The notes beneath the pieces are model-generated. The model saw nothing but the letters and a program-made list of their open reading frames with translations. It was not told the DNA's origin and did not search any database. This document shows positions 5,269 to 30,652 of a stretch of DNA of 64,000 bases, one piece after another (position 1 is the stretch's first letter; every line of letters begins with the position of its first letter). Source of the stretch: a virus; the IMG/VR virus record IMGVR_UViG_3300045988_083604, positions 1-64,000 of that record; one strand, 5' to 3'. Made by a program: the position numbers and the translations under genes.

Positions 5269-5712
5269 ATGAAAAACGTTATTACTAAGGTCGTTGTAAA
5301 ATCGTTGGAGCTGTCGAAAACGGTAGATAATTCGTTGCAAGTCGAATGCGAGTCGTTAACGGACTTCGCAAATATGTCGGTAGAGGATATATTACTCTCT
5401 GGCGGTGTGCGCAAATATGTTTTTTTCTTAAAAAATTGTGCGGACAAGAAAGATATACTCACAACAGCATTAGTCAATAAGGACACGCACGTAATTGTAT
5501 ATACGTTCGATGTGTCGGAAATCGTAGTGGGTAAATCGTCCGTTAATGTTGTATCTGATGGAGAAGTGACTGGAACATATACGGCACTTACATATGTGTT
5601 GCCGTGTAAGGCTGATTTTCAACCATCGGAGCAAGATGTCGAAGGCGCAAAACAAGCGTTAACCGCACAAGTCGATAGACGTGTTGCAGCTGGTACGTAC
5701 GAACTTGTATGA
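5269..5712 (+). CDS. hypothetical protein, about 147 aa, GC-richer than neighbours
   Basis: ORF track 5173..5712, trimmed to the first ATG (MKNVITK); antisense shadow ORF 5106..5486; followed by a GAAA-loop hairpin at 5719..5745. Confidence 0.55.
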   Translation: MKNVITKVVVKSLELSKTVDNSLQVECESLTDFANMSVEDILLSGGVRKYVFFLKNCADKKDILTTALVNKDTHVIVYTFDVSEIVVGKSSVNVVSDGEVTGTYTALTYVLPCKADFQPSEQDVEGAKQALTAQVDRRVAAGTYELV

Positions 5713-6702
5713 CTTATTGGAGGGCAGTCGAAAGACTGTCTCTCCTTGCGTAATTAGTGTCACATTTGCCATTTACATAGAGAAATTCCTTCTTAATATA
5801 TAGCTTTTTACGAAACTTTATATAAATCCTGATTCAAACTTTAAATTCGGAATTATACATTCTGATGAGTTAACCGATGACGGTTGAGGTGAATACAACA
5901 CCAAGAACAGAAATAAATGTACAAGTATGTGTACGCTCACAAACATGCTTGATAAAGAGAGCTGGCAATACGGAAAGACGTATAAACTTGGTTAGTCATA
6001 TGGCCTGGTAAACCATATGCCGTCTTAATATAACTAAGGTTATATTGGTATGTAAGACGAAATGTTTTAACATCGCATTATATACATTGTATAGGTGTAC
6101 TGGAATGACATACCTGAGTCCAGTAGTCGGAATAGTTCCTGCAGATATTATTCTGTACTGATGTTATGTGTAATCGGGTGGTTACCGCACACTGATTACG
6201 ACGTTGTAGATGTACGACTACAATGTTTAATTAATTATGACAAGTCCTGAGCATGACTATAAACTGCTCATTTTTAATACATTTATGTTGTAATGTAGCC
6301 TTTGGCGGTTCCAAGCCCGCATGAGAAATACAGAGGACAACGAAACACACAGGTTTCACATCATAGTACACGTGATGTAAACGTATTGTATGTAAAAAGT
6401 ATCTAGTTCCTATCAGGCTTCTAAATGGAAAGGATATACATACAATACAGTGTACAATTCATAGTTAAATTATTAATTATGAAAGAAAGCCTGGTCATCC
6501 ACCGCAATGTCGAGAAGTGCGGTAGTAATAGAGCGACATCTGTTACGAACTATGTTCAACGGTCTACTTACGTTGTATGATAAGCATAGTTAGTACATTT
6601 TACCAGATGTACAATTCCAACTAAATTGGTCAATAGTTGTATGTCGCATAATCCCTGTAGGTGAGTAGACCACTTGCACTGCAGCTACAGGGATGTTTTA
6701 AA
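5713..6702 (+). ncRNA. ORF-free, helix-rich region of about 1 kb; candidate large structured RNA of unknown class
   Basis: No ORF of 60 aa or more on either strand. Many local hairpins (catatgg/ccatatg, accg-atga-cggt, ttgtag/ctacaa) and a long-range 7-bp pairing gtagtcg(6122-6128)/cgactac(6214-6220). Confidence 0.35.
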
Positions 6703-6780
6703 TGCCTCTTAGCTCAAAAGCCAGAGCCTCACAGATGTAATATCATGCGAGAGATGATGGTTCGAATCCATCAGAGGTAA
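6703..6780 (+). ncRNA. tRNA-like element with canonical acceptor, D and T arms but no 7-nt anticodon loop
   Basis: Acceptor tgcctct/agaggta (U1-A72); D arm gctc-aaaagcca-gagc; T arm gatgg-ttcgaat-ccatc. The 27 nt in between fold only into an irregular extended stem. Confidence 0.4.
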
Positions 6781-6801
6781 CTTCTTTTATAGGTTTAGTG
6801 T

Positions 6802-6840
6802 GAGGGTGAACTGTTCGTGAGAATCGTTCACTCTTATTTT
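6802..6840 (+). terminator. conserved-loop hairpin plus T-tract (family member 1)
   Basis: Stem gtgaac/gttcac, loop tgttcgtgagaatc, then tcttatttt. Confidence 0.55.
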
Positions 6841-7213
6841 ATTTAATACAGCTTGGGAGTTTATAAAATACAATAACATAAAATTAAAACATAATCAATA
6901 TGCGAGAAAAAGTAATAGAGTTTATTGTAGCTAATACGTCCTTTAGTTACGATGAACTTAAAACGTGGTCTAACAAAGAGTTAGATGACTTTATGGGACG
7001 TGCTTTTCCAGTAGAATATTAAAAAACATTATCAAGTATGAATAAATACAATCCTGAAGAACTAAGTGTTGCTATCAAAGCAGCACTTAATAAAGGTATC
7101 AAAGGAGAAAGAAATCGCAGAACATCTTAGTAGATATTTTGGAGTATTGATAACAGAAGCTAAATTTGGAGATCTTAAAGACTTCTCCGTTTTAGCATAT
7201 AAACCTGAAAACA

Positions 7214-7414
7214 ATGAGTAAATTAATGCTATCTTTCACAGCCACATTTTGTGCTACAATGTGTGCTGTTCTACTATATGTAGAAAGAGATAATTTAAGT
7301 ACTAGCACAGACGAAAATATTATTTTGAGTATACTTTTTGCGGTAATTGCCATATTGTCATTCTTGATATTCTATAAAGAGTGCAATGATTGGTTTCACT
7401 TAAATGAAGAATAA
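7214..7414 (+). CDS. small membrane protein, 66 aa
   Basis: ORF track; two hydrophobic segments. Confidence 0.5.
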   Translation: MSKLMLSFTATFCATMCAVLLYVERDNLSTSTDENIILSILFAVIAILSFLIFYKECNDWFHLNEE

Positions 7415-7921: not shown

Positions 7922-7992
7922 TGGACTATGGTGTAATGGGAACACAACAGTTTTTGGCGCTGTTGTTCCAGGTTCGAATCCTGGTAGTCCAA
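7922..7992 (+). tRNA. tRNA-Gln(UUG)
   Basis: Hand-folded cloverleaf: acceptor tggacta/tagtcca (U1-A72), D arm gtgt-aatggga-acac, anticodon arm acagt-ttTTGgc-gctgt, T arm ccagg-ttcgaat-cctgg; no encoded CCA. Confidence 0.85.
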
Positions 7993-8062
7993 CTAATAAC
8001 GATATAGGCAGAGTCAGCAATGCTATGCAATTTGTTTTTAATTGTTTATATTTATTAATTTT

Positions 8063-9062: not shown

Positions 9063-9356
9063 ATGAAAACAGAGCACAAATCAATTGTAGCAGTTTCAAC
9101 AGATGGTACTTATGCTGTACGAGCATTGTTTGATAAAAATTATCAGCTATGTGATATACAGCCAAGAGTACAAGGTAAATTTGTAGATGGTCGTTTTCGC
9201 AGCGTAACACAAGAGACGCTGAACATGTATCACGGTCAACCTTATGACGTGTGTCATGATGAAGTACTAATTAACTTAAAATGGATAGCTGACAATGAAA
9301 GAAACACATTCGAAGAAGGTTTTGCAGAACCAAGTGAATCCGCCGAAGAAGAGTAA
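9063..9356 (+). CDS. hypothetical protein, 97 aa
   Basis: ORF track. Confidence 0.55.
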   Translation: MKTEHKSIVAVSTDGTYAVRALFDKNYQLCDIQPRVQGKFVDGRFRSVTQETLNMYHGQPYDVCHDEVLINLKWIADNERNTFEEGFAEPSESAEEE

Positions 9357-9631
9357 GTGGAACCAAAAGTGTTGGAAAATATATTTCAAACACGATGGAT
9401 GTTCAATGTTGTTATTTGACAACTTGACAGGTGTTAATGCCATGATACGCGCAAAAACGTTATCAAGGTTATACAACAGCTGGAAAGGCAAGTTTATCAT
9501 TACAAAATAAGTTAATTATGGAAAAGACAATAATAATGCCTGGACAATTTGTGACATTCGAAAATGCAATATACAAAGCTAAAAAATGTTACACGAATAA
9601 GATTTAAAAGATCTATTAATAAAACGAAAAA

Positions 9632-9862
9632 ATGAAAATTATTGTTAACAACGCTTCTCATCTATGTAAATGTTATAGATGTGGATCAAAATTAGAGGTA
9701 AGTCCTAGCGACATAAAAAACAAAAGTTTCTCTGGAAGAGATTGTGAACTTGCTGAAAGATACTACTTTGTGTGTCCATGTTGTGAAGCAAAAAATGATG
9801 TGGATTTACAAACGTTTTATACTTTCGAACCTTATGTGGATAAAAACGCAATAATATTATAA
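9632..9862 (+). CDS. small zinc-ribbon protein (CxxC...CxxC)
   Basis: ORF track; CYRCGS and CPCCEA pairs. Confidence 0.55.
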   Translation: MKIIVNNASHLCKCYRCGSKLEVSPSDIKNKSFSGRDCELAERYYFVCPCCEAKNDVDLQTFYTFEPYVDKNAIIL

Positions 9863-9989
9863 AGATGAATCAGAAAACAAAAATAGCAGCAGTTAAAGCA
9901 TCGTTAAAACAGGATGAACGTACTACTTTAAATATCATCACTGATAAGTTATCAGATGATGATATTGATTATTTAACATCTAAAATTCT

Positions 9990-10205
9990 ATGATAAAAAA
10001 GCGTTTAAAGCCAGGACAGTTGTTCACAATGTACAATCATATTTGGCAAGTTCGAAAATGTACAAGATGGCCTTGTGGTAATTGTGAACTATATCCGTAT
10101 CGGATATCATTAATAGTAAAATGGGATGTTAATCCATGTGATCAATTATGTTTGTGTGGTAAAAACATCATACCTTCAGAATATGTTGCAGTATTAGTAA
10201 AATGA
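9990..10205 (+). CDS. hypothetical Cys-rich protein, 71 aa
   Basis: ORF track; ATGA overlap with the next ORF. Confidence 0.5.
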   Translation: MIKKRLKPGQLFTMYNHIWQVRKCTRWPCGNCELYPYRISLIVKWDVNPCDQLCLCGKNIIPSEYVAVLVK

Positions 10206-14467: not shown

Positions 14468-14664
14468 GAACATTATCATAACAACATATTTAGTATATTA
14501 AACAGATATATCGAATCATATTACTACGAAGATTAAGAGTAGCTAACTTATGATTCAAAGTATATGCTGAGACAAACATTCTGTTTAATCTACCTAAGTA
14601 TATAGAATCTGATCAATTCTATATACTACAAAATGAAATCGTTTGAGTATGAGTTAATTATGTA

Positions 14665-14693
14665 GGACGAGGGTTCGAATCCCTCCACGTCCA
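14665..14693 (+). ncRNA. acceptor/T-arm minihelix (tRNA top-half mimic)
   Basis: ggacg-aggg-ttcgaat-ccct-cca-cgtcc-a; no matching distal 5' acceptor strand found upstream. Confidence 0.35.
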
Positions 14694-14857
14694 CTCTTGT
14701 TTATATATAAGGGCGTGACCGGTTTTGACTGCATAAGGAAGTAAATACGAGATTTCAGAAATCGATAAATCAGAACAATAACATTGTTGACTATACTCAC
14801 GTAGCGTGAGTATGAGTCCTGACAATTCCTTGAGTCAGTTGGAAAAATAGGATGGTT

Positions 14858-16159: not shown

Positions 16160-16720
16160 TTGATTATGAATACGCCCAAAATTACTCTAGAAGAAATTGG
16201 GATAATCAAAGATGCCAAAGCTGGTAAAGAATCAGCATTTAATTTGTTGTACCATAAATACAGAAGTTTTGTAATAGATTTATTAAATCAATACATAAAA
16301 GATATTGATGAGTCTAAAGACTTATCTAATCTTGTATTTCTAAAGGTACATCAAAAACTCTCGAAATTCAAAGACTATCATTCGTTTGGAGGATGGTTGA
16401 GAATACTAACAAAAAACACTGCCATTGATTATCTAAGGACATTGAAAAATAAAACAATATCTATAGATGATCAAGAAAACGGAATACAATTATCGGATAT
16501 CGGAGATATTGTTGATGAAAATGTTTCTATAACATACGATATGTTAATAGGAATGCTTGGTAAACAAACAGAAACCAATAGAAAAATCATCAAATTGTAT
16601 TACGAAGAAGGAATGACAGTATTACAAATCAGTAAAGCGATAAATGTGCCAGTGGGAACTATAAAGTCATATCTGCACAGGATTCGTAATAACCTCAAAA
16701 AACAATTAAAACTATGTTAA
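16160..16720 (+). CDS. ECF-type sigma-70 family RNA polymerase sigma factor
   Basis: Region 2-like FGGWLRILTKNTAIDYLR and region 4 HTH MTVLQISKAINVPVGTIKSYLHRIRNNLK. Confidence 0.8.
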   Translation: MIMNTPKITLEEIGIIKDAKAGKESAFNLLYHKYRSFVIDLLNQYIKDIDESKDLSNLVFLKVHQKLSKFKDYHSFGGWLRILTKNTAIDYLRTLKNKTISIDDQENGIQLSDIGDIVDENVSITYDMLIGMLGKQTETNRKIIKLYYEEGMTVLQISKAINVPVGTIKSYLHRIRNNLKKQLKLC

Positions 16721-18765: not shown

Positions 18766-18927
18766 ATGTCAGAAATCCATGTAGGCAGCTATAAAAAGCT
18801 TAGAAAAGTGATTAATCGTTTAAACAGTGATGGGTATTCACACAACTTGCGTAAAAACATGCGAGTTCCTAGACATAATGGAATAACCGTTATTGTTGAT
18901 CACGATAAAAAAGAGGCTGTCGCTTAA
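18766..18927 (+). CDS. small basic protein, 53 aa
   Basis: Hand translation (MSEIHVGSYKKLRK...); exact cattatcaaaATG leader. Confidence 0.5.
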   Translation: MSEIHVGSYKKLRKVINRLNSDGYSHNLRKNMRVPRHNGITVIVDHDKKEAVA

Positions 18928-18947
18928 ACTTTAAAAACATTATCAAA

Positions 18948-19349
18948 ATGAAAAAGTTAACAACTATCATTTCGTGCTCAATACTACTAATATATGGATT
19001 ATTAGTAGGTATAAATAATAGAGTAGATCCTGGTGCAACAGCATATGCTGCGCCAGCGGCGCCAGTAATAGGCGCATTGCCATATGATCTCCAACAGAGT
19101 CATATGAAACGTGATACTGTCTATATCACAAAAGACAGTGTAGTGTGCAACTATAAAGAGAGAATAAAAGAGGTAAAAGTACCATATGCAGTACATGATA
19201 CGTTGTATGTGCCAGTGTTGTATATAGCTTCACCCAAGGTTCGTGAGGAGCAAACCTGTGGTAACTCTCAATCCGAGTATATTGTAAGGAAAGCTAGCTC
19301 TGAAGATATCGACCACAAAACGACATTCACTCCGGGAGAGAATAGTTAA
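18948..19349 (+). CDS. secreted protein, 133 aa
   Basis: ORF track; signal-like N-terminus; exact cattatcaaaATG leader. Confidence 0.6.
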   Translation: MKKLTTIISCSILLIYGLLVGINNRVDPGATAYAAPAAPVIGALPYDLQQSHMKRDTVYITKDSVVCNYKERIKEVKVPYAVHDTLYVPVLYIASPKVREEQTCGNSQSEYIVRKASSEDIDHKTTFTPGENS

Positions 19350-21400
19350 GGCTATTCAGTCGTAGACATCTCCGTCAGTACTTATAATGGGTCTCATTAG
19401 CCCATGTACGAAAGAAACTTGATCCGAGAATATGTTAACCTTCTCAAAAGGCGAGATCACTCAAAAGGTAGGATGAAATGTATTATATGTGAAAAGTATA
19501 ATATAAGTGGGGAGAGCGTTGTATTAACCCCAACAGCGTTATTGAGAACCGTCTGGCGAATAACGGCTTAGGAAGACGCGTAAGTCTCAAGAAGAGCAAA
19601 ACAATCCAGTAGCTAATACTCCTTGTAGTTTTGATGTAGACTACATTGGTAACTGAATACAAGTGTTGAAACATATGAAATTCCAAACTTCATATGATAC
19701 ATCATTGCTTAATCTAGTGTTCCACAGCTCCAAACTGTGTATGAAGGGATGAAAATTTTATTAGGGTGTAAGATAGGATAGAGAAGGACTTAGCAGGTAG
19801 TATGTGAGTCAGATCATACTATTGTCAGTTAGGCTAAGCTACGCAGTAAACGTAGTGTCCAGGGATAAATCTGTGCCGTTCGATTCGGCAACCTTTTGAG
19901 CCAAAGAAGGGTCCGGGGATGCAGTAAAGAGTTGAGGCTGAGAAAACTATCTGCTTACAATGAGATAAGACCGCCAGGCTTTGGTCGTTTATGCGGTATA
20001 TAAAAGTAAAATGACCAGATACGTGAAGCAAACTGTATAGCTCCCAGAGTCAGCGTTCATAGGACTGAGGGCAGGATTGTAATATAAGACATTAGCAATC
20101 TTATATTATATGAAATGTGGAATAAAGGTGATTACTTGACAATCAAAAACCACCATTTCGTATTTTATGGTTTAACATTAAATGCACATTTATAATATAA
20201 GCATAACACTCCAGTTATAACCTGAAAATTATAGATGCCTATAAAACATTTACAAAATTAGTATATACATATTCAATATAACATATAATATCTATTATCC
20301 TCTGTATAAAGAAAAAGAACCGTTAGGAATAATGATAGTTATTATATATAATAATAGTGCATATGTTATGAGTATAAGTAAATATACAAAATCGAGTATT
20401 GTAAGGTGTAGGAAAGAAGCTACATATCAAGTTCTAAAATAACATTTATTAACAAAAATTGATGTCCCCAGATAGTGAAAAACTTATGTTGTAAATAAGG
20501 AGTAATGAGGTCTGGAAGTTCGAGTGCCAACCGTTATGATAACCAGTGTAAAGTATACATCCGCAAGTGTATATGTACAGCTAAAGGTAGAATCAATACA
20601 GAAAACATAGTAGGCAGCATATTATTAAAATGAGAAATCATACTAGCAGTGCAAAAGCGTATGCCTGTGGGACGAACCCACCACGATCTACACTGTCTCT
20701 GTAGGGCGTGAAAATAATATGTGGGTGATAACATGTAAGTATGTACGGGGTTGAAATCCCTAATATTCGTGCACTATAAACAAAAGAGGTTTTTAGCAAG
20801 ATTTTCCATCGAATAATCACCGTAGAGTCGTAGATACCCCCTGAAGGCTAGACTGTCCGATAATGAAACGTTACTATTGATTATTCTGCTTACGTTTAAA
20901 AGGAAGAATAGTGGTTGATGCGCCTAAACAGTATCGTAAGACTGTACAGCATCGGGAGAATGTGTTTGTTGTTATTGGGAAATACACGACCAAGACATTC
21001 TCTATTTTTATTTTTGTTGGATAATACACATTATCTCAGCCAATGAACCCTCCGCGATTCCTGAAACATCAGAGCGTTGGACGGATGATGTGTATAAACT
21101 TTATTTCAAAAAATCTAGTTTTACTCTAAAAGATTTAGTATATGATATACAAAAGGTCATTCAAAGCTTTCCTATAGAGATATAGGATTAGTTGTATATA
21201 CTCATAAGAGGCTAAGCTGTTTCTACCGTTGAAACCCTCTTATGATGACTTACACGGAAAAGCGGTCAAAATAAAAGTTGACACCTTTATTTATAAATCT
21301 TGAGTATAAAAACTTTAAAGCTTTCTCTGAGCTGAGAGGAGAATAATATATAATTTATCGTGGGTGTAATCAAACACGATATCAAATAGGATAAATTATT
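19350..21400. other. about 2 kb ORF-free region: two helix-rich flanks around an AT-rich core; candidate large structured RNA(s) and/or origin
   Basis: Only short, non-overlapping ORFs (60-67 aa) in the ORF track. Many strong hairpins (catatgaa/ttcatatg, cataagagg/cctcttatg, atcgtg/cacgat, tgccg-ttcgatt-cggca). Group I R-like gtagactaca at 19636 and S-like tagtgtccag at 19851. Confidence 0.3.
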
Positions 21401-22009
21401 ATGGACAATAACAATGTAAATATCAATGTAAGATTAGTGGAAGACAATCGAGTAAATATCAGTAGTTTTGGTTCGCTTTATGGTAAGCGAATCTTTAAAG
21501 CAGTCAAACTCTCATGTGATCTTGACTTCCAAAAGCGTCTTCGTGACGCAAATGAGAATAATGGACTTGTAACCAACCGTGCTCCGCTGCGTTATAAGAT
21601 CGTACCTATTGACATAGTAGGTCTTGATCTTGACAAGGACGTTGACGGAACTAATGTAATTGTGATCAATAAGGGTCGCAAGGACGAGGCTGGTGAGTCT
21701 ATTGAGGTTCGTTGTCCAATTGACAACGAGAAGTTCACAAAGGATGTTACAACTGAGACTGTAACAGACGCGTTGAACAAGAAGGATTTTATTACTACAT
21801 ACTTCGCAAACGCAAAGAAGCTTGCTGAGGCACTGAATCCTGCAAATGCAACAGAGATGAACCGTATCGATGCTCTCATTCGAGATCTTGAGAAGCAGCG
21901 TAAGATGATCCAGGATACATTCGATAAGAATATTTCTGGTGTAAACGATTACTACCGTCAGCTCGATCAGAAGAAGAGCGAGGTACATGTAAATGTAACA
22001 GTTGACTAA
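21401..22009 (+). CDS. hypothetical protein, 202 aa, GC-richer codon usage
   Basis: ORF track; antisense shadow ORFs; stop overlaps the next start. Confidence 0.65.
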   Translation: MDNNNVNINVRLVEDNRVNISSFGSLYGKRIFKAVKLSCDLDFQKRLRDANENNGLVTNRAPLRYKIVPIDIVGLDLDKDVDGTNVIVINKGRKDEAGESIEVRCPIDNEKFTKDVTTETVTDALNKKDFITTYFANAKKLAEALNPANATEMNRIDALIRDLEKQRKMIQDTFDKNISGVNDYYRQLDQKKSEVHVNVTVD

Positions 22010-22536
22010 TGAAAAAGATTAGCCTTAAGAGCAAACTACAAATACAAATTCTTTTTTTGGACCCGACGATCAAACGGAACCTGATTGACGAGTCTAAAAA
22101 AGAATTATATAGTCGAATTACTATTAATGATGACGGATCTATCACTTTTGGAAAGACAGGGTGTCTTTGGTGGAATCGTCTTCTTGGTGATGAAATGACT
22201 ATATCTTTTGCAGATTTTGCAATTAAAACTGTAGCAGCTCTTGCAGGACAGGAACGTAATATCAACGATGTGATACTCAAAGGCTTGAGTGAGGAGGTAA
22301 TACGTAATGCTGTAATGCAAGATAAATACGACATGGTAGTCGATCGTTTATTTGATGCCGCAAGGTATGGTGTTAAAGGTCCTCTAAATACTGAGGGCTT
22401 CTCTGTAAGTGATAAAATAGATAAACACATTAAAATTGAAACCAAAGATGGTGTACGAGTAGCACGCTTGCCGGGATCAGGCGATCCCTTGTGCGAAATC
22501 AGAGTTGGTGTCAAGGGTGTTGATTTTTATGAATAG
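22009..22536 (+). CDS. hypothetical protein, 175 aa; terminates at TAG
   Basis: ORF track; a long antisense shadow ORF 21876..22514 was rejected. Confidence 0.6.
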   Translation: MKKISLKSKLQIQILFLDPTIKRNLIDESKKELYSRITINDDGSITFGKTGCLWWNRLLGDEMTISFADFAIKTVAALAGQERNINDVILKGLSEEVIRNAVMQDKYDMVVDRLFDAARYGVKGPLNTEGFSVSDKIDKHIKIETKDGVRVARLPGSGDPLCEIRVGVKGVDFYE

Positions 22537-22631
22537 TTATTTTGTAGGTTAAACAGGCGTTTGATTACAAATCTTACATACTATTATATATTCACTTTAG
22601 TGTTGGGGCACATAGTACCCCGACTCAATTA

Positions 22632-23158
22632 ACCTTCATGGCGGAATTGGTAGACGCTTTGGACTTATTAAACCTTAGTAATAAGGAATTTGAGTGCCCT
22701 ATGAGAAATCATAGGAGTAGAATCTCCCTAATCAAACAGTTGCTATGAAATCAACTGCGACAGAAGCCTCGCTTATGGTGACATAAGCTTTGGTGATGAC
22801 GAGCTAAATTGAAACAATATAAAATGATTAGTATTTCCCGAGACCGGTCAAGAAATATTAATAAGTTTGAATACAAAGTTTTATAATTCATAAATGTGTA
22901 GAGACTATAGAGGAGATGCCTAAGTTTAAGTATACAAATATGTATTACTTAAATATGGTAATAAAATAGTCCAGACCACAAAAACTTACATGAAAGGTAT
23001 TTCACTATAATCATTACTAAATGTGTTAAGTACTGTAACTTCATGCTAGCGTTGAACGTAATGAGTAGGACGTAAGTAAGTTTGCTTGTGTAAAAGCAAG
23101 TGTGGTAAGAAAATCCAATGACCATACGGTCGTGCGGGTTCGATCCCCGCTGGAGGTA
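22632..23158 (+). tRNA. tRNA-Leu(UAA) interrupted by a group I intron between anticodon positions 34 and 35
   Basis: 5' exon accttca-tg-gcggaattggtagacgc-t-ttgga-ctT. 3' exon AAaa-tccaa-tgaccatacggtcgt-gcggg-ttcgatc-cccgc-tggaggt-a. Acceptor 7 bp, anticodon stem ttgga/tccaa, class II variable arm gacc-atac-ggtc. Confidence 0.85.
22667..23109 (+). ncRNA. group I intron, about 443 nt, without an ORF
   Basis: Follows U34 and ends in G. R-like gtgtagagactatag (22896-22910) and S-like aatagtcc (22965-22972) give P7 gacta/tagtc. GUAA-capped hairpin cctta-gtaa-taagg near the 5' end. Confidence 0.75.
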
Positions 23159-23218
23159 CGATATTTTAGGAAACATTATTATTTATTATTACTATTTATT
23201 ATTTTGTTGAGTTTGTAA

Positions 23219-23249
23219 CTCTTCGGTTTGTGAAAATAGAAGAGTTTTT
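23219..23249 (+). terminator. conserved-loop hairpin plus T-tract (family member 4)
   Basis: Stem ctcttc/gaagag, loop ggtttgtgaaaata, then ttttt. Confidence 0.6.
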
Positions 23250-23250
23250 A

Positions 23251-23335
23251 CGGTGTGTTACAACAATCAAATAATCATTTGTTTACTGTTTCTCAATTTT
23301 GTAGGTAACATGAGGTGCAAGTCCTCACACACCGA
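23251..23335 (+). ncRNA. 85-nt tRNA-like element with an irregular anticodon arm
   Basis: Acceptor cggtgtg/cacaccg 7 bp; D stem acaa/ttgt with a 15-nt loop; T arm tgagg-tgcaagt-cctca; the central arm has a 10-14 nt loop containing ttCTCaa. Confidence 0.35.
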
Positions 23336-23395
23336 CTAGGTAAACGATTTTTTTCAAATTCATATCAATATGTTTAATTTAAATCAAATCGAAAT

Positions 23396-23950
23396 ATGAA
23401 TAAGAACAAATCAATGAAATTAAGCTCAAAGGATATCATTATTGCTCGTGATAACATTTGTAAGACAAAGACAAAGTATTGGCGTATTATACGTTCAGAG
23501 AACGTTATAAGTAAGAAGGCTAAGGCAGCCGGAATGGGTTCAGGTTTTGACCTAACACAATTGCATAATGAGATTCTTCAAATGTCTAATACACTCATTA
23601 AGATTAAACTTATGTTAAATGCTATTAATAATGGCATTAAGGAGTTTAACTTTGAGGAGGCTAAGAAGACACATTATTATACAATTTACGCAGCTTGTGA
23701 GAAGAAAGAGCAACTTGCACATTGGGAAGAGATTCTCAAGAAGAGTACAATTAATCCAGCTACGAAAGCTAAAGCTGGAACAAAGGGTACTGGAAAAATA
23801 GAGACGTTTACATCAGCTAAGATTACTGCAATAAAGAAGAAGTTGCAGCTTGAGATAAACAAGCTTGATGCTGATATTGCTAAGTTTAATAATGAGGCAA
23901 GTCTCGAAACATCAGATATTGATGATATTAAGCATTATTTTACAGCTTAA
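23396..23950 (+). CDS. hypothetical helical protein, 184 aa
   Basis: ORF track. Confidence 0.6.
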   Translation: MNKNKSMKLSSKDIIIARDNICKTKTKYWRIIRSENVISKKAKAAGMGSGFDLTQLHNEILQMSNTLIKIKLMLNAINNGIKEFNFEEAKKTHYYTIYAACEKKEQLAHWEEILKKSTINPATKAKAGTKGTGKIETFTSAKITAIKKKLQLEINKLDADIAKFNNEASLETSDIDDIKHYFTA

Positions 23951-29079: not shown

Positions 29080-30652
29080 ATGAGCGGTTTTATATTACCT
29101 ACACAACCAATTCCAGCAGTTTCAACAAATCCTAAATTTTTAATTTTATATGGTCGTCCTAAAGCAGGAAAGACTAGTGCATTAGCACAGCTTCCTAATA
29201 ATCTAATTATAGATTTGGAAGGAGGATCACAATTTATAGACGCAATGGCAGTACAAGCCAGAAGTGTTGGAGATTTAGGAGAAATTGCACAAGCAATCAG
29301 AGCTAAAAACTCTGAAACAAAACATAATTTTTATAAGCATATAACAATAGACAATGCTACTCGATTAGAGGAGATGTGTTTACCGTATGCAAAGACACTC
29401 TGTAATAATGGAGCTTTAAATAGAAATATTTATAGAAAATTCCGTGAATTGCTGGAACCTCTTTCATTTGTCATAATATATAACAATAAGAAAGAAAATC
29501 AGCAGCATTTATGAAACAAGAAACTTTAAAAAAGTATATTGGTAAAACATGGGGTGTTTTAACTTGTTTAGGAATCGATCATGAAGATTACGATAAAGAC
29601 AAATAGAGAAAAAGAACATATTTTAAAGTAAAATGTTCTAGATGTGGTTCTGAATCTGTAGTTAGAGCTGATCGTTTCTTTGGAACATATGTTCCAAAAT
29701 CATGTACACATTGTGTAAATGATTTACAAGTTGAAACAGCAAATAAAAAGTATCCTAAAAATAGAAGATTATTAAATTCAAGAATATCAAAATACACACA
29801 TATAAGCAACAGAAAAGGAAAAACAGTAAAATCTTACTTATCAAAAATTGAAGCAGAAAAATTGCTTACTTCTAAGTGTTTTTATTGTGGAAAAGAAAAT
29901 GCAATGGGAATAGACAGAATAGATTCATCTAAAGATTATACTTTAGATAATTGTGTTTCGTGTTGCGGAATGTGTAATATTATGAAGAATAAATTTGATA
30001 TTGATGAATGGTTTTCTAAAATAGGAGAAATTTATAGAAATCATGTTGATAGATGTTCAACGACTATCTCGAAAGAGAGTACATCACAAGTTAATGGTGA
30101 TGGAAGTGCGGAACTTCTGACTGCCGCATAGGTAAAAGAAGATGATATAGTCTATTCTGCATAGTGATATGCAGCAGTTCATAAGAGAACGTATATAGTG
30201 TTACGAACTATATAGAATATAAAGATATGCAAACACCAATGGGAAAGAACTACAAAGGAGACGATGTACGTACTTTACCAAATGGTTCTGGATATATGTA
30301 TCTAAGACAAGCTGTACGCAAAGTTTTAGATATGTTTAAGAGTCTTTGTGATGAATTTATTTTAATTGGACACGTGAAAGATGTTCAAATAGAACAAAAC
30401 GGAGAAGAGCTTAATCAGATGGCATTGGATCTTGTTGGAAAACTAGGATCTATTGTATGTGGTGAAGCAGATGCTGTGGGATATGTTTATAGAAAAGGTA
30501 ACGAAACTCACATAAGCTTTAAAGGCGGTGATGGTACCATTAAAGAAGCCAGAGCACCTCATCTTAGAGGCAACGATATTGTTATCGCAACTGGTAATGA
30601 AGATGGAACTATTACTACTTATTGGGACAGAATTTTTAAATCAGAAAACTAA
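29080..30652 (+). CDS. Sak4-like AAA_24 ATPase (RecA-like), split gene: join(29080..29401,30225..30652) gives 249 aa
   Basis: Exon 1 has Walker A YGRPKAGKTS, DLEGGS and Walker B ITIDNAT. Exon 2 continues the family (ILIGHVKD...). The proposed splice keeps the frame (322+428=750 nt) and gives the junction AKTL-Y-MQTPMGK. Confidence 0.7.
29402..30224 (+). mobile_element. group I intron (about 823 nt) carrying an HNH homing endonuclease gene
   Basis: 5' exon ends in U and the intron ends in G. P1 cucU/Ggag with a U-G wobble (29398-29401 with 29410-29413). R element gttcaacgactatc (30055-30068) and S element aagatgatatagtc (30139-30152) give P7 gacta/tagtc. P9-like hairpin ctgcata/tatgcag. Confidence 0.75.
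29511..30131 (+). CDS. intron-encoded HNH endonuclease, 206 codons with one in-frame TAG at 29604..29606
   Basis: Hand translation: the frame is open from ATG 29511 to TAG-free stop TAG? no, to stop at 30129..30131, except for one internal TAG. C-terminal CFYCGK...IDRID...NCVSCCGMCNIMKNK HNH core; the ORF track shows only 29862..30131. Confidence 0.65.

Follow-up and report, generated by a model that had tools for sequence, protein, structure and literature searches.

A 2-kb non-coding locus with covarying RNA helices in crAss-like phages of the family Suoliviridae

What occupies the two kilobases between positions 19350 and 21400 of the viral record IMGVR_UViG_3300045988_083604, where no gene of ordinary size can be read? 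In this study, we analysed the first 64,000 nucleotides (nt) of this IMG/VR record, referred to here as the window, which belongs to a crAss-like phage of the family Suoliviridae. A preliminary description, made from the letters alone, had singled out this interval as a helix-rich gap free of open reading frames (ORFs) and had offered two kinds of explanation, one or more ORF-less introns or a large ornate phage non-coding RNA (ncRNA). The latter is strongly supported by our data, as the interval is non-coding, is better conserved than its flanks, contains helices maintained by compensatory changes and is present throughout one phage family. We conclude that the finding is real and robust, and that the interval is a hallmark of this family and a very large structured RNA locus of a new class. 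In the reading that we favour, to which we assign a probability of about 0.65, the locus would give rise to one very large plus-strand RNA of ~1.95 kb or to two abutting RNAs, acting in trans as a structural or scaffold RNA.

The gap sits in a block of co-oriented genes and is bounded by the stop codon at 19349, on the side of a 478-aa gene, and by the ATG at 21401 of a 202-aa gene. As previously stated, ORFs that run from a start to a stop codon do not exceed 67 aa here; between two stop codons, the open stretch is at most 81 codons. Reading through TAG, TGA or TAA, each on its own, does not open it, and under the standard code or any of these three readings no stop-free frame is conserved across 21 non-redundant full-length relatives, in which the longest stop-free runs vary in position, frame and strand. 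The preliminary description had named a protein gene in an alternative code among the findings that would speak against an RNA; none came to light. Compared with three relatives, substitutions in the gap are spread over the three phases as 430:465:482, while the downstream gene, used as a control with the same relatives, gives 124:94:296; furthermore, only 281 of 1399 short gap runs (20%) are divisible by three and 80% would break a frame. A conserved frame, a third-position excess and indels in multiples of three are therefore all lacking under any code, and the interval is non-coding.

On the minus strand, stop-free runs of at least 60 codons are frequent among the relatives, as is to be expected by chance because that strand is pyrimidine-rich. 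In public records the locus is either unannotated or mis-annotated as minus-strand 'hypothetical proteins'. Annotations of this type, mostly on the minus strand, lie within the homologous gap of cr7_1 (L002 3764-4246), a Bohxovirus (L003 3291-3797), cr113_1 (L253 9300-9737), cr109_1 (L255 6510-6947) and Dulem virus 42 (L008 3428-5436), and since the tests on frames, phases and indels were negative, these proteins are probably spurious. With regard to base composition, the structured blocks have a G+C (GC) content of 0.39-0.46, compared with ~0.32 for the genome and 0.42-0.455 for the adjacent 478-aa gene. The earlier statement that the region is GC-richer than coding DNA is thus correct for the genome as a whole but not for this neighbour.

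The closest public relatives are the Oafivirinae phages cr130_1, cr131_1, cr7_1, cr124_1, cr272_1 and cr273_1, a Bohxovirus and the unclassified Dulem virus 42. Between this phage and cr7, cr124, cr131, cr272, cr273 or the Bohxovirus the flanking proteins share 29-38% identity, whereas the blocks of the gap share 73-81% DNA identity with the relatives; the gap is better conserved than the genes on either side. A central role in infection is likely, because a 2-kb locus that outconserves the neighbouring proteins is fixed in the whole family.

The evidence for structure lies in covariation and not in folding stability. From MAFFT alignments we derived three covariance models, with which the collected loci were then searched. 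In R1 (19386-19600, 67 distinct sequences) double-sided changes occur in 33 of 33 pairs, and 90.1% of positions are paired against 36-46% when the pairing is slid. The corresponding values are 15 of 25 pairs and 95.5% against 34-43% for R3 (19818-20034, 37 distinct sequences), and 12 of 24 pairs and 95.0% against 23-57% for R2 (20678-20870, 38 distinct sequences), giving double-sided compensatory changes in 60 of the 82 pairs of the three models together. The covariation score of R1 is 0.66, compared with 0.19 in shuffles. Model-fitted alignments lean towards their own model; alignments made with MAFFT from sequence only recover the same helices and the same compensatory changes. Ten further RNAalifold modules, which cover the rest of the interval including its middle, are 84-99% paired against 26-66% when slid, and over the whole interval ~246 pairs are predicted, of which 124 show double-sided changes. 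The comparison with related phages that had been proposed earlier has thus yielded both conservation and covariation.

The pairs also allow the two strands to be distinguished. For the 133 pairs predicted on both strands, 124 G·U cells stand against 54 A·C cells, and the summed RNAalifold consensus energy is -254 for the plus and -211 for the minus strand. The conserved G·U pairs indicate a plus-strand RNA.

To establish how widely the locus is distributed, an invariant 17-nt loop, UGAGAACCGUCUGGNGA (19543-19559), was used as a search pattern for IMG/VR. It was found on at least 120 stretches, of which ~55 carry a full-length homologue and ~45 more match the first ~200 nt alone; in the latter group, contigs that are long enough show the same gene order round an ORF-free gap of ~1.9-2.3 kb. 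An equivalent ORF-free gap of 1.85-2.5 kb lies between the same genes in the Loutivirinae, Boorivirinae, Uncouvirinae and Bearivirinae, so that, together with the Oafivirinae, the gap occupies the same position in all five subfamilies of the Suoliviridae and on more than 100 IMG/VR contigs. Matches of R1 in the other subfamilies are always on the plus strand and are confined to the 5' end of the gap or its first ~320 nt. They reach 87-96 bits in the Loutivirinae, 55 in the Boorivirinae and 28 in the Bearivirinae, and are weak, with 17-18 bits and an E value of about 1e-3, in the Uncouvirinae. In a scan of bacterial and archaeal genomes, one true homologue was present among the 80 loci returned, on a phage contig in a Segatella copri metagenome-assembled genome (MAG). 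This contig (L132, JAJWOH010000001.1, 101,563 bp) has homologues of all three modelled modules and is probably a complete crAss-like phage genome; its binning is possibly a pointer to the host or else an artefact.

According to the model that we propose, transcription would run rightwards, in the orientation of the early and middle genes around the locus. The RNA would begin ~30 nt past the upstream stop codon, near 19378, and end ~1.95 kb further on, at a terminator-like hairpin near 21343. Its fold would comprise more than 35 local helices, grouped as block A (19378-20150) and block B (20445-21345), with a middle of constrained length between them. We propose that the RNA works in trans, possibly with protein partners or by self-assembly, on the pattern of GOLLD and ROOL, two large 'ornate' RNAs associated with phages. 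The ~45 nt that precede the next gene (21353-21396) would be a separate hairpin able to cover its ribosome-binding site. All features described below are on the plus strand.

In block A, the presumed 5' half of the RNA, covarying hairpins follow one another, together with one enclosing helix, as seen with R1, R3 and RNAalifold, whose modules Ma and Mb are 84-94% paired here against 31-54% when slid. No other part of the locus is conserved as widely as the first ~220 nt of this block. They start with a hairpin (19378-19409) that has an outer GUAC/GUAC and an inner AUGGGU/GCCCAU stem closed by the loop CUCAUUA, in which CAUUA is near-invariant; 6 of 6 inner pairs show double-sided changes in the 67 sequences, and the outer stem becomes GUUCC/GGAAC in the Bohxovirus group. 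A kissing interaction between this loop (UCAUUA) and UAAUGA at 20861 was considered and rejected, as by eye the variants fail to compensate. The enclosing helix CUUGAUCC/GGAUGAAA (19418-19478) follows, which surrounds a hairpin CCUU..AAGG (19439-19451) and a conserved, purine-rich strand, CAAAAGGUAGGAUGAAAU. Helices 2 and 3 of R1, which correspond to this region, are 92% and 98% paired with double-sided changes in 10 of 10 pairs. Four hairpins come next, among them UAUUAUA/UAUAAUA and GGGG/CCCC (19481-19531; R1 helices 5 and 6), the second with the conserved loop AGAGCGUUGUAUYAA, and the hairpin at 19537-19565 (R1 helix 7), which presents the invariant 17-nt loop on a stem that alternates between UA, CG, GC and AU.

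A variable stretch separates these first hairpins from a tRNA-like trio. An 8-bp hairpin, CAUAUGAA/UUCAUAUG, is found at 19672-19696 and is one of four pairings named in the preliminary description, all of which are present. Its compensatory variants, CAUAUAGA/UCUAUAUG, CACAUAGA/UCUAUGUG and CAUACUUA/UAAGUAUG, were judged by eye and are restricted to the closest relatives. The trio (19839-19911) consists of an anticodon-arm-like hairpin (19839-19855), a T-arm-like hairpin (19874-19890; TGCCG-TTCGATT-CGGCA) covered by R3, and a helix CCUUUU..AAGGG (19892-19911). These are helices 1-3 of R3, with 99.5%, 98.9% and 87% pairing and double-sided changes in 12 of 16 pairs, and the T-arm-like hairpin, the second of the four pairings, is thus kept by compensation. 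The trio is not a tRNA, because it has no acceptor stem, and neither ARAGORN nor Rfam found a tRNA in 19350-21400. The most conserved block, A4 (19969-20016), has ~91% column identity. Here a GGUCG/UGACC helix covaries (R3 helix 5) and is interleaved with the third of the named pairings, the near-invariant ACCGC (19970-19974)/GCGGU (19993-19997). From its sequence, A4 is a candidate H-type pseudoknot with an A-rich third loop, ACCGC/GCGGU varying too little to be put to the test of covariation.

The middle segment (20151-20444) is AT-rich in this genus. Its GC content is 0.22-0.39 over all lineages, with 0.22-0.26 in this genus and cr130 alone and 0.30-0.39 elsewhere. Its length is constrained across the lineages and it contains covarying helices (module Msp; 88% paired against 27-51% when slid).

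Block B, the presumed 3' half, is covered by R2 and by modules M3a, M3b, M4 and M5. In domain B1 (20461-20619), UGUCC pairs with GGCAG over a span of ~150 nt and is almost invariant; it encloses CCAGAU/GUCUGG, a hairpin at 20483-20499 and the invariant GAGUGCCAACCG. A hairpin UCUACA/UGUAGG (20687-20705) is followed by domain B2, the two together extending over 20687-20774. In B2, GUGGGUGA pairs with UAUUCGUGCAC through conserved G·U pairs and encloses a T-loop-like hairpin at 20747-20761 (R2 helices 1-4). The three G·U pairs are present in 29, 35 and 28 of the 38 sequences and are replaced elsewhere by G-C or A-U. Domain B3 (20820-20870; R2 helices 5-6) is a long hairpin formed by CCGUAGAGUC and GACUGUCCG, then a conserved tail, GAUAAUGAAACG. 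The last of the four pairings, the 9-bp stem CAUAAGAGG/CCUCUUAUG (21203-21244), encloses GUUUC-UACCGUU-GAAAC; its module, M5, has 13 pairs, is 92% paired and shows double-sided changes in 8 of them, so that compensation in relatives maintains this stem as well.

The terminator-like hairpin (21323-21343) is likely to mark the 3' end of the RNA. The T-run that follows it is weak here; many relatives have a clear one, and a hairpin with a T-run just past block B is seen in eight of the collected loci (L001, L007, L052, L003, L045, L022, L006 and L005); a scan for consensus terminators returned none in the window itself. Beyond it, before the 202-aa gene, lies a separate cis element (21353-21396; module M6, 99% paired), with a motif that occurs only once in the window. 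It can pair in either of two mutually exclusive ways, UAUCGUG/CACGAUA or AUUUAUC/GAUAAAU, and the second masks some of the ribosome-binding site of the gene, AGGA, which lies 5 nt before the ATG at 21401. This hairpin may be a translational switch or a protein-binding operator.

Whether the interval is one RNA or more is a matter of inference, and a single long unit is favoured because the order and spacing of the blocks are fixed. The distance from A4 (19969-20016) to the start of B1 (20461) is 414-462 nt and the loop-to-operator distance 1799-1974 nt in 13 of the 21 non-redundant sequences, the only ones in which both landmarks could be placed, and wherever landmarks were placed the total length is held within about 10%. 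The covarying helices of the middle segment and the 3' terminator-like hairpin with its T-run in many lineages support the same view. A stronger form of this proposal, in which the whole ~1.95 kb is a single RNA kept through the entire history of the Suoliviridae for an essential RNA activity, such as higher-order self-assembly, catalysis or the capture of tRNAs or translation factors, is put forward only tentatively; this activity might be connected with amber (TAG) read-through, to which the late genes have switched. A single RNA of this size would, to our knowledge, exceed every other structured non-ribosomal RNA known from bacteria and their viruses.

Several of our results weigh against a large plus-strand RNA acting as a scaffold. 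The 5' half is thermodynamically equal to shuffled sequence, the minimum free energy compared with dinucleotide shuffles giving z=0.0 for 19376-20100 and z=-2.5 for 20445-21345. The region had previously been described as full of strong hairpins; this applies, to a moderate degree, to the 3' half, but the 5' half is at chance level. Under strict thresholds, no covarying helix with a span of at least 60 nt was found in the MAFFT alignment of 21 sequences, a search of low power, and the locus resembles a row of local domains more than a single globular fold, with the exception of the non-covarying UGUCC/GGCAG in B1. The strand signal is absent in the middle (12 G·U to 17 A·C) and in B1 (10:10), and the plus-strand call therefore rests on the other modules. 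The blocks past the first 220 nt went undetected by R2 and R3 in the Loutivirinae, the one further subfamily searched with these two models, and in most of the more distant contigs searched; that the whole 2 kb is homologous throughout the family is therefore deduced from position and size alone. Near the locus, no promoter of sigma-70 or Bacteroidetes type exceeded chance expectation, nothing in the neighbouring proteins pointed to an RNA partner, and the comparison with GOLLD and ROOL is one of likeness in kind alone, with no mechanistic link to either RNA. A conserved string before block B had been considered as a repeated promoter motif and was dropped, as it is not enriched.

The most probable rival is that the interval yields several RNAs of small or medium size, each with an action of its own. 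They would be released from a common precursor, for example by RNase P or RNase Z cleaving at the tRNA-like or T-arm-like elements. Every supported helix is local, no long-range covarying helix was found, and the T-arm-like and T-loop-like hairpins could act as processing signals. In addition, the far wider conservation of the first 220 nt suggests at least partly independent modules. This alternative has to explain, however, why block order, spacing and total length are so constant, why no promoter or terminator is conserved between the blocks, and why in the loci searched no module is duplicated or found alone, and we regard it as rather unlikely.

It is less probable still that the interval acts in cis, as a giant intercistronic leader of a polycistronic mRNA that times or gates the expression of the downstream replication genes, which comprise the 202-aa gene, a 175-aa gene and others up to the DNA polymerase. 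The co-oriented genes, the mere ~30 nt between the upstream stop codon and the first hairpin, and the lack of a recognisable promoter would all fit such a leader, as would the covarying hairpin overlapping the ribosome-binding site of the next gene, which adjoins the 3' end of the locus. On the other hand, 2 kb of sequence-conserved loops and more than 35 helices are far above any known leader, no riboswitch or leader family of Rfam matched, and in many lineages a terminator-like hairpin with a T-run stands between the locus and the operator-like hairpin.

An element that functions at the level of DNA, such as a replication origin, a packaging site or a set of N4-type single-stranded DNA hairpin promoters for a virion RNA polymerase, is in our view very improbable. 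It could be suggested by the position of the locus just upstream of replication genes, by the AT-rich centre in this genus and by the N4-like giant virion RNA polymerase of crAss-like phages, for which a 5462-codon ORF is seen here. Against it stand the compensatory changes in dozens of helices, including an enclosing helix, and the 2.3-fold excess of G·U over A·C with conserved G·U pairs, which is atypical of double-stranded DNA sites. Moreover, there are no iterons or other repeats in the locus and no GC-skew inflection at 20 kb, and the AT-rich centre is missing in most lineages.

The proposal of ORF-less self-splicing introns of group I or II has hardly any probability left. In its favour, an R-like string at 19636 and an S-like string at 19853 are present, and group I introns have been reported in core genes of delta-group crAss-like phages (PMC7886860). 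The former string lies in a gappy, poorly conserved stretch (0.47 identity, 37% gaps), and the latter overlaps the 3' arm of an unrelated covarying hairpin. A search with Rfam, as had been recommended, was made at gathering score for the whole window and at E<=10 for 18900-21900. No family matched the locus, the gap returning noise only (rli53, SNORD70 and the like). Intron_gpI gave no match at either level, the group II models (Domain V and domains 1-4) gave none at E<=10, and GOLLD, ROOL, OLE and HEARO gave none at either level. Recognisable introns, GOLLD, ROOL, OLE, HEARO, RNase P, transfer-messenger RNA (tmRNA), riboswitches and ribozymes are thereby excluded for this interval. There is also no interrupted host gene: in each relative examined the flanking ORFs are complete, the upstream one ending at a stop codon of its own and the downstream one having its own ribosome-binding site and ATG, and the interval is fixed in all five subfamilies, unlike sporadic mobile introns. 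A resemblance to conserved regions of RNase P RNA was noticed in a few short strings and is not borne out by any model.

Equally negligible is a hidden protein-coding sequence, whether in an alternative code, on the minus strand or as small proteins, which the TAG read-through of the late genes, the common minus-strand stop-free runs of at least 60 codons and the minus-strand GenBank annotations of cr7_1, the Bohxovirus, cr113_1 and cr109_1 might seem to favour, but which is contradicted by the shifting positions and frames of those runs, the flat distribution of substitutions over the phases and the predominance of frame-breaking short indels.

Taking the locus as a large structured RNA, its nearest counterparts are found among the large 'ornate' RNAs of bacteria and phages, of which GOLLD and ROOL are examples (Weinberg et al. 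2017, PMC5737381; for cryo-electron microscopy, PMC12286853). As a descriptive class, and not as a homologous family, 'large ornate ncRNA' applies to the locus, which is longer than ~500 nt, is non-coding and has covarying helices and conserved unpaired nucleotides. Like GOLLD and ROOL, it is a very long phage-borne ncRNA with many covarying helices and conserved loops, which is GC-richer than its AT-rich genome and is found in a genome region that also has tRNA-like and tmRNA-like genes. It differs from them in that no homology of sequence or structure was detected, no long-range closing helices were found, and the nearest tRNA is 11 kb away. It is also longer, at ~1.95 kb, than GOLLD with roughly 800 nt and ROOL with 580 nt.

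With group I and II introns the locus shares several hundred nt of structured RNA without an ORF and an origin in a phage group that has introns (PMC7886860); it differs in having no model match, no conserved core strings and no interrupted gene, and in a position that is fixed in the family and not patchy. With the T-loop RNAs (tRNA, tmRNA and RNase P RNA) it shares a 5-bp stem and a 7-nt UUCGAUU loop covarying as a T-arm, and it has a second T-loop-like hairpin; unlike these RNAs it lacks an acceptor stem, and the models for tRNA, tmRNA and RNase P find no match within it. Finally, Fremin et al. 2023 (PMC10690425) predicted candidate structured RNAs in intergenic regions of IMG/VR, with motifs of 29-151 nt, from the same data source and by the same method, covariation in phage intergenic DNA. 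Single hairpins of the locus may be among those predictions, whereas crAss-like phages and elements on the kilobase scale do not appear in that paper. The comparative genomics study that defined the crAss-like groups (Yutin 2021, PMC7886860) deals with introns, inteins and recoding but not with this region, and the element is not described in the 2026 Segatella crAss preprint or in the UG/Abi paper. Within the literature searched, it is therefore undescribed and in no RNA catalogue.

The Suoliviridae are abundant gut crAss-like phages. The locus offers a ready marker for their genomes and corrects existing annotation, and it provides RNA structural biology with a new and unusually large target, of the kind that has yielded unexpected RNA cages in the case of GOLLD and ROOL.

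With respect to the neighbouring genes, searches of their proteins against PHROGs, Pfam, NCBIfam and PDB sequences recognised nothing other than a sigma factor of the extracytoplasmic function (ECF) type. This protein, with Sigma70_r2 and r4 domains, is encoded on the plus strand at 16160-16720, 3 kb upstream of the RNA locus, and its gene is kept at that place in all Suoliviridae examined, which suggests that the middle genes, and perhaps also the RNA locus, are transcribed by the host polymerase together with a phage sigma factor. The 202-aa gene that adjoins the locus is present on hundreds of contigs; an AlphaFold model of its product (predicted local distance difference test score 78) had no Foldseek match in the PDB at E<=0.001, the best having E=0.5.

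The plus-strand early and middle genes, up to ~35 kb, use the standard code. In the minus-strand late genes, from 35.4 kb on, very long frames appear solely when TAG is read through, and this fuses the late genes at 35422-64000 into frames of 1854, 5462, 638, 721 and 857 codons, the second of which is presumably the giant virion RNA polymerase. Despite this, the searches detected no CUA-anticodon tRNA in the window, where the sole canonical tRNA is Gln(UUG) at 7922-7993. A tRNA-like gene on the plus strand at 6703-6780, which scores 39.7 bits with Rfam and was missed by ARAGORN, has normal acceptor, D and T arms and an anticodon arm of 16 nt where the model has 11. At 14634-14809, on the plus strand and 4.5 kb upstream of the gap, the Rfam family tmRNA_permuted (RF04321) matches with 63 bits against a threshold of 47, which suggests that the phage encodes a tmRNA in two pieces; cr125_1 has an annotated tmRNA at the corresponding position (L257 5001-5450). 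The earlier comparison with large RNAs next to tRNAs in other phages thus fits only loosely, as none of these genes is adjacent to the gap, the nearest tRNA genes being 11-13 kb upstream and the tmRNA-like gene closer. Further ORF-poor stretches of 0.7-1.7 kb, in which no ORF reaches 90 aa, occur at 5712-7404, 9356-10202, 22536-23396 and 29514-30227, and in this otherwise compact genome they might be further RNA genes.

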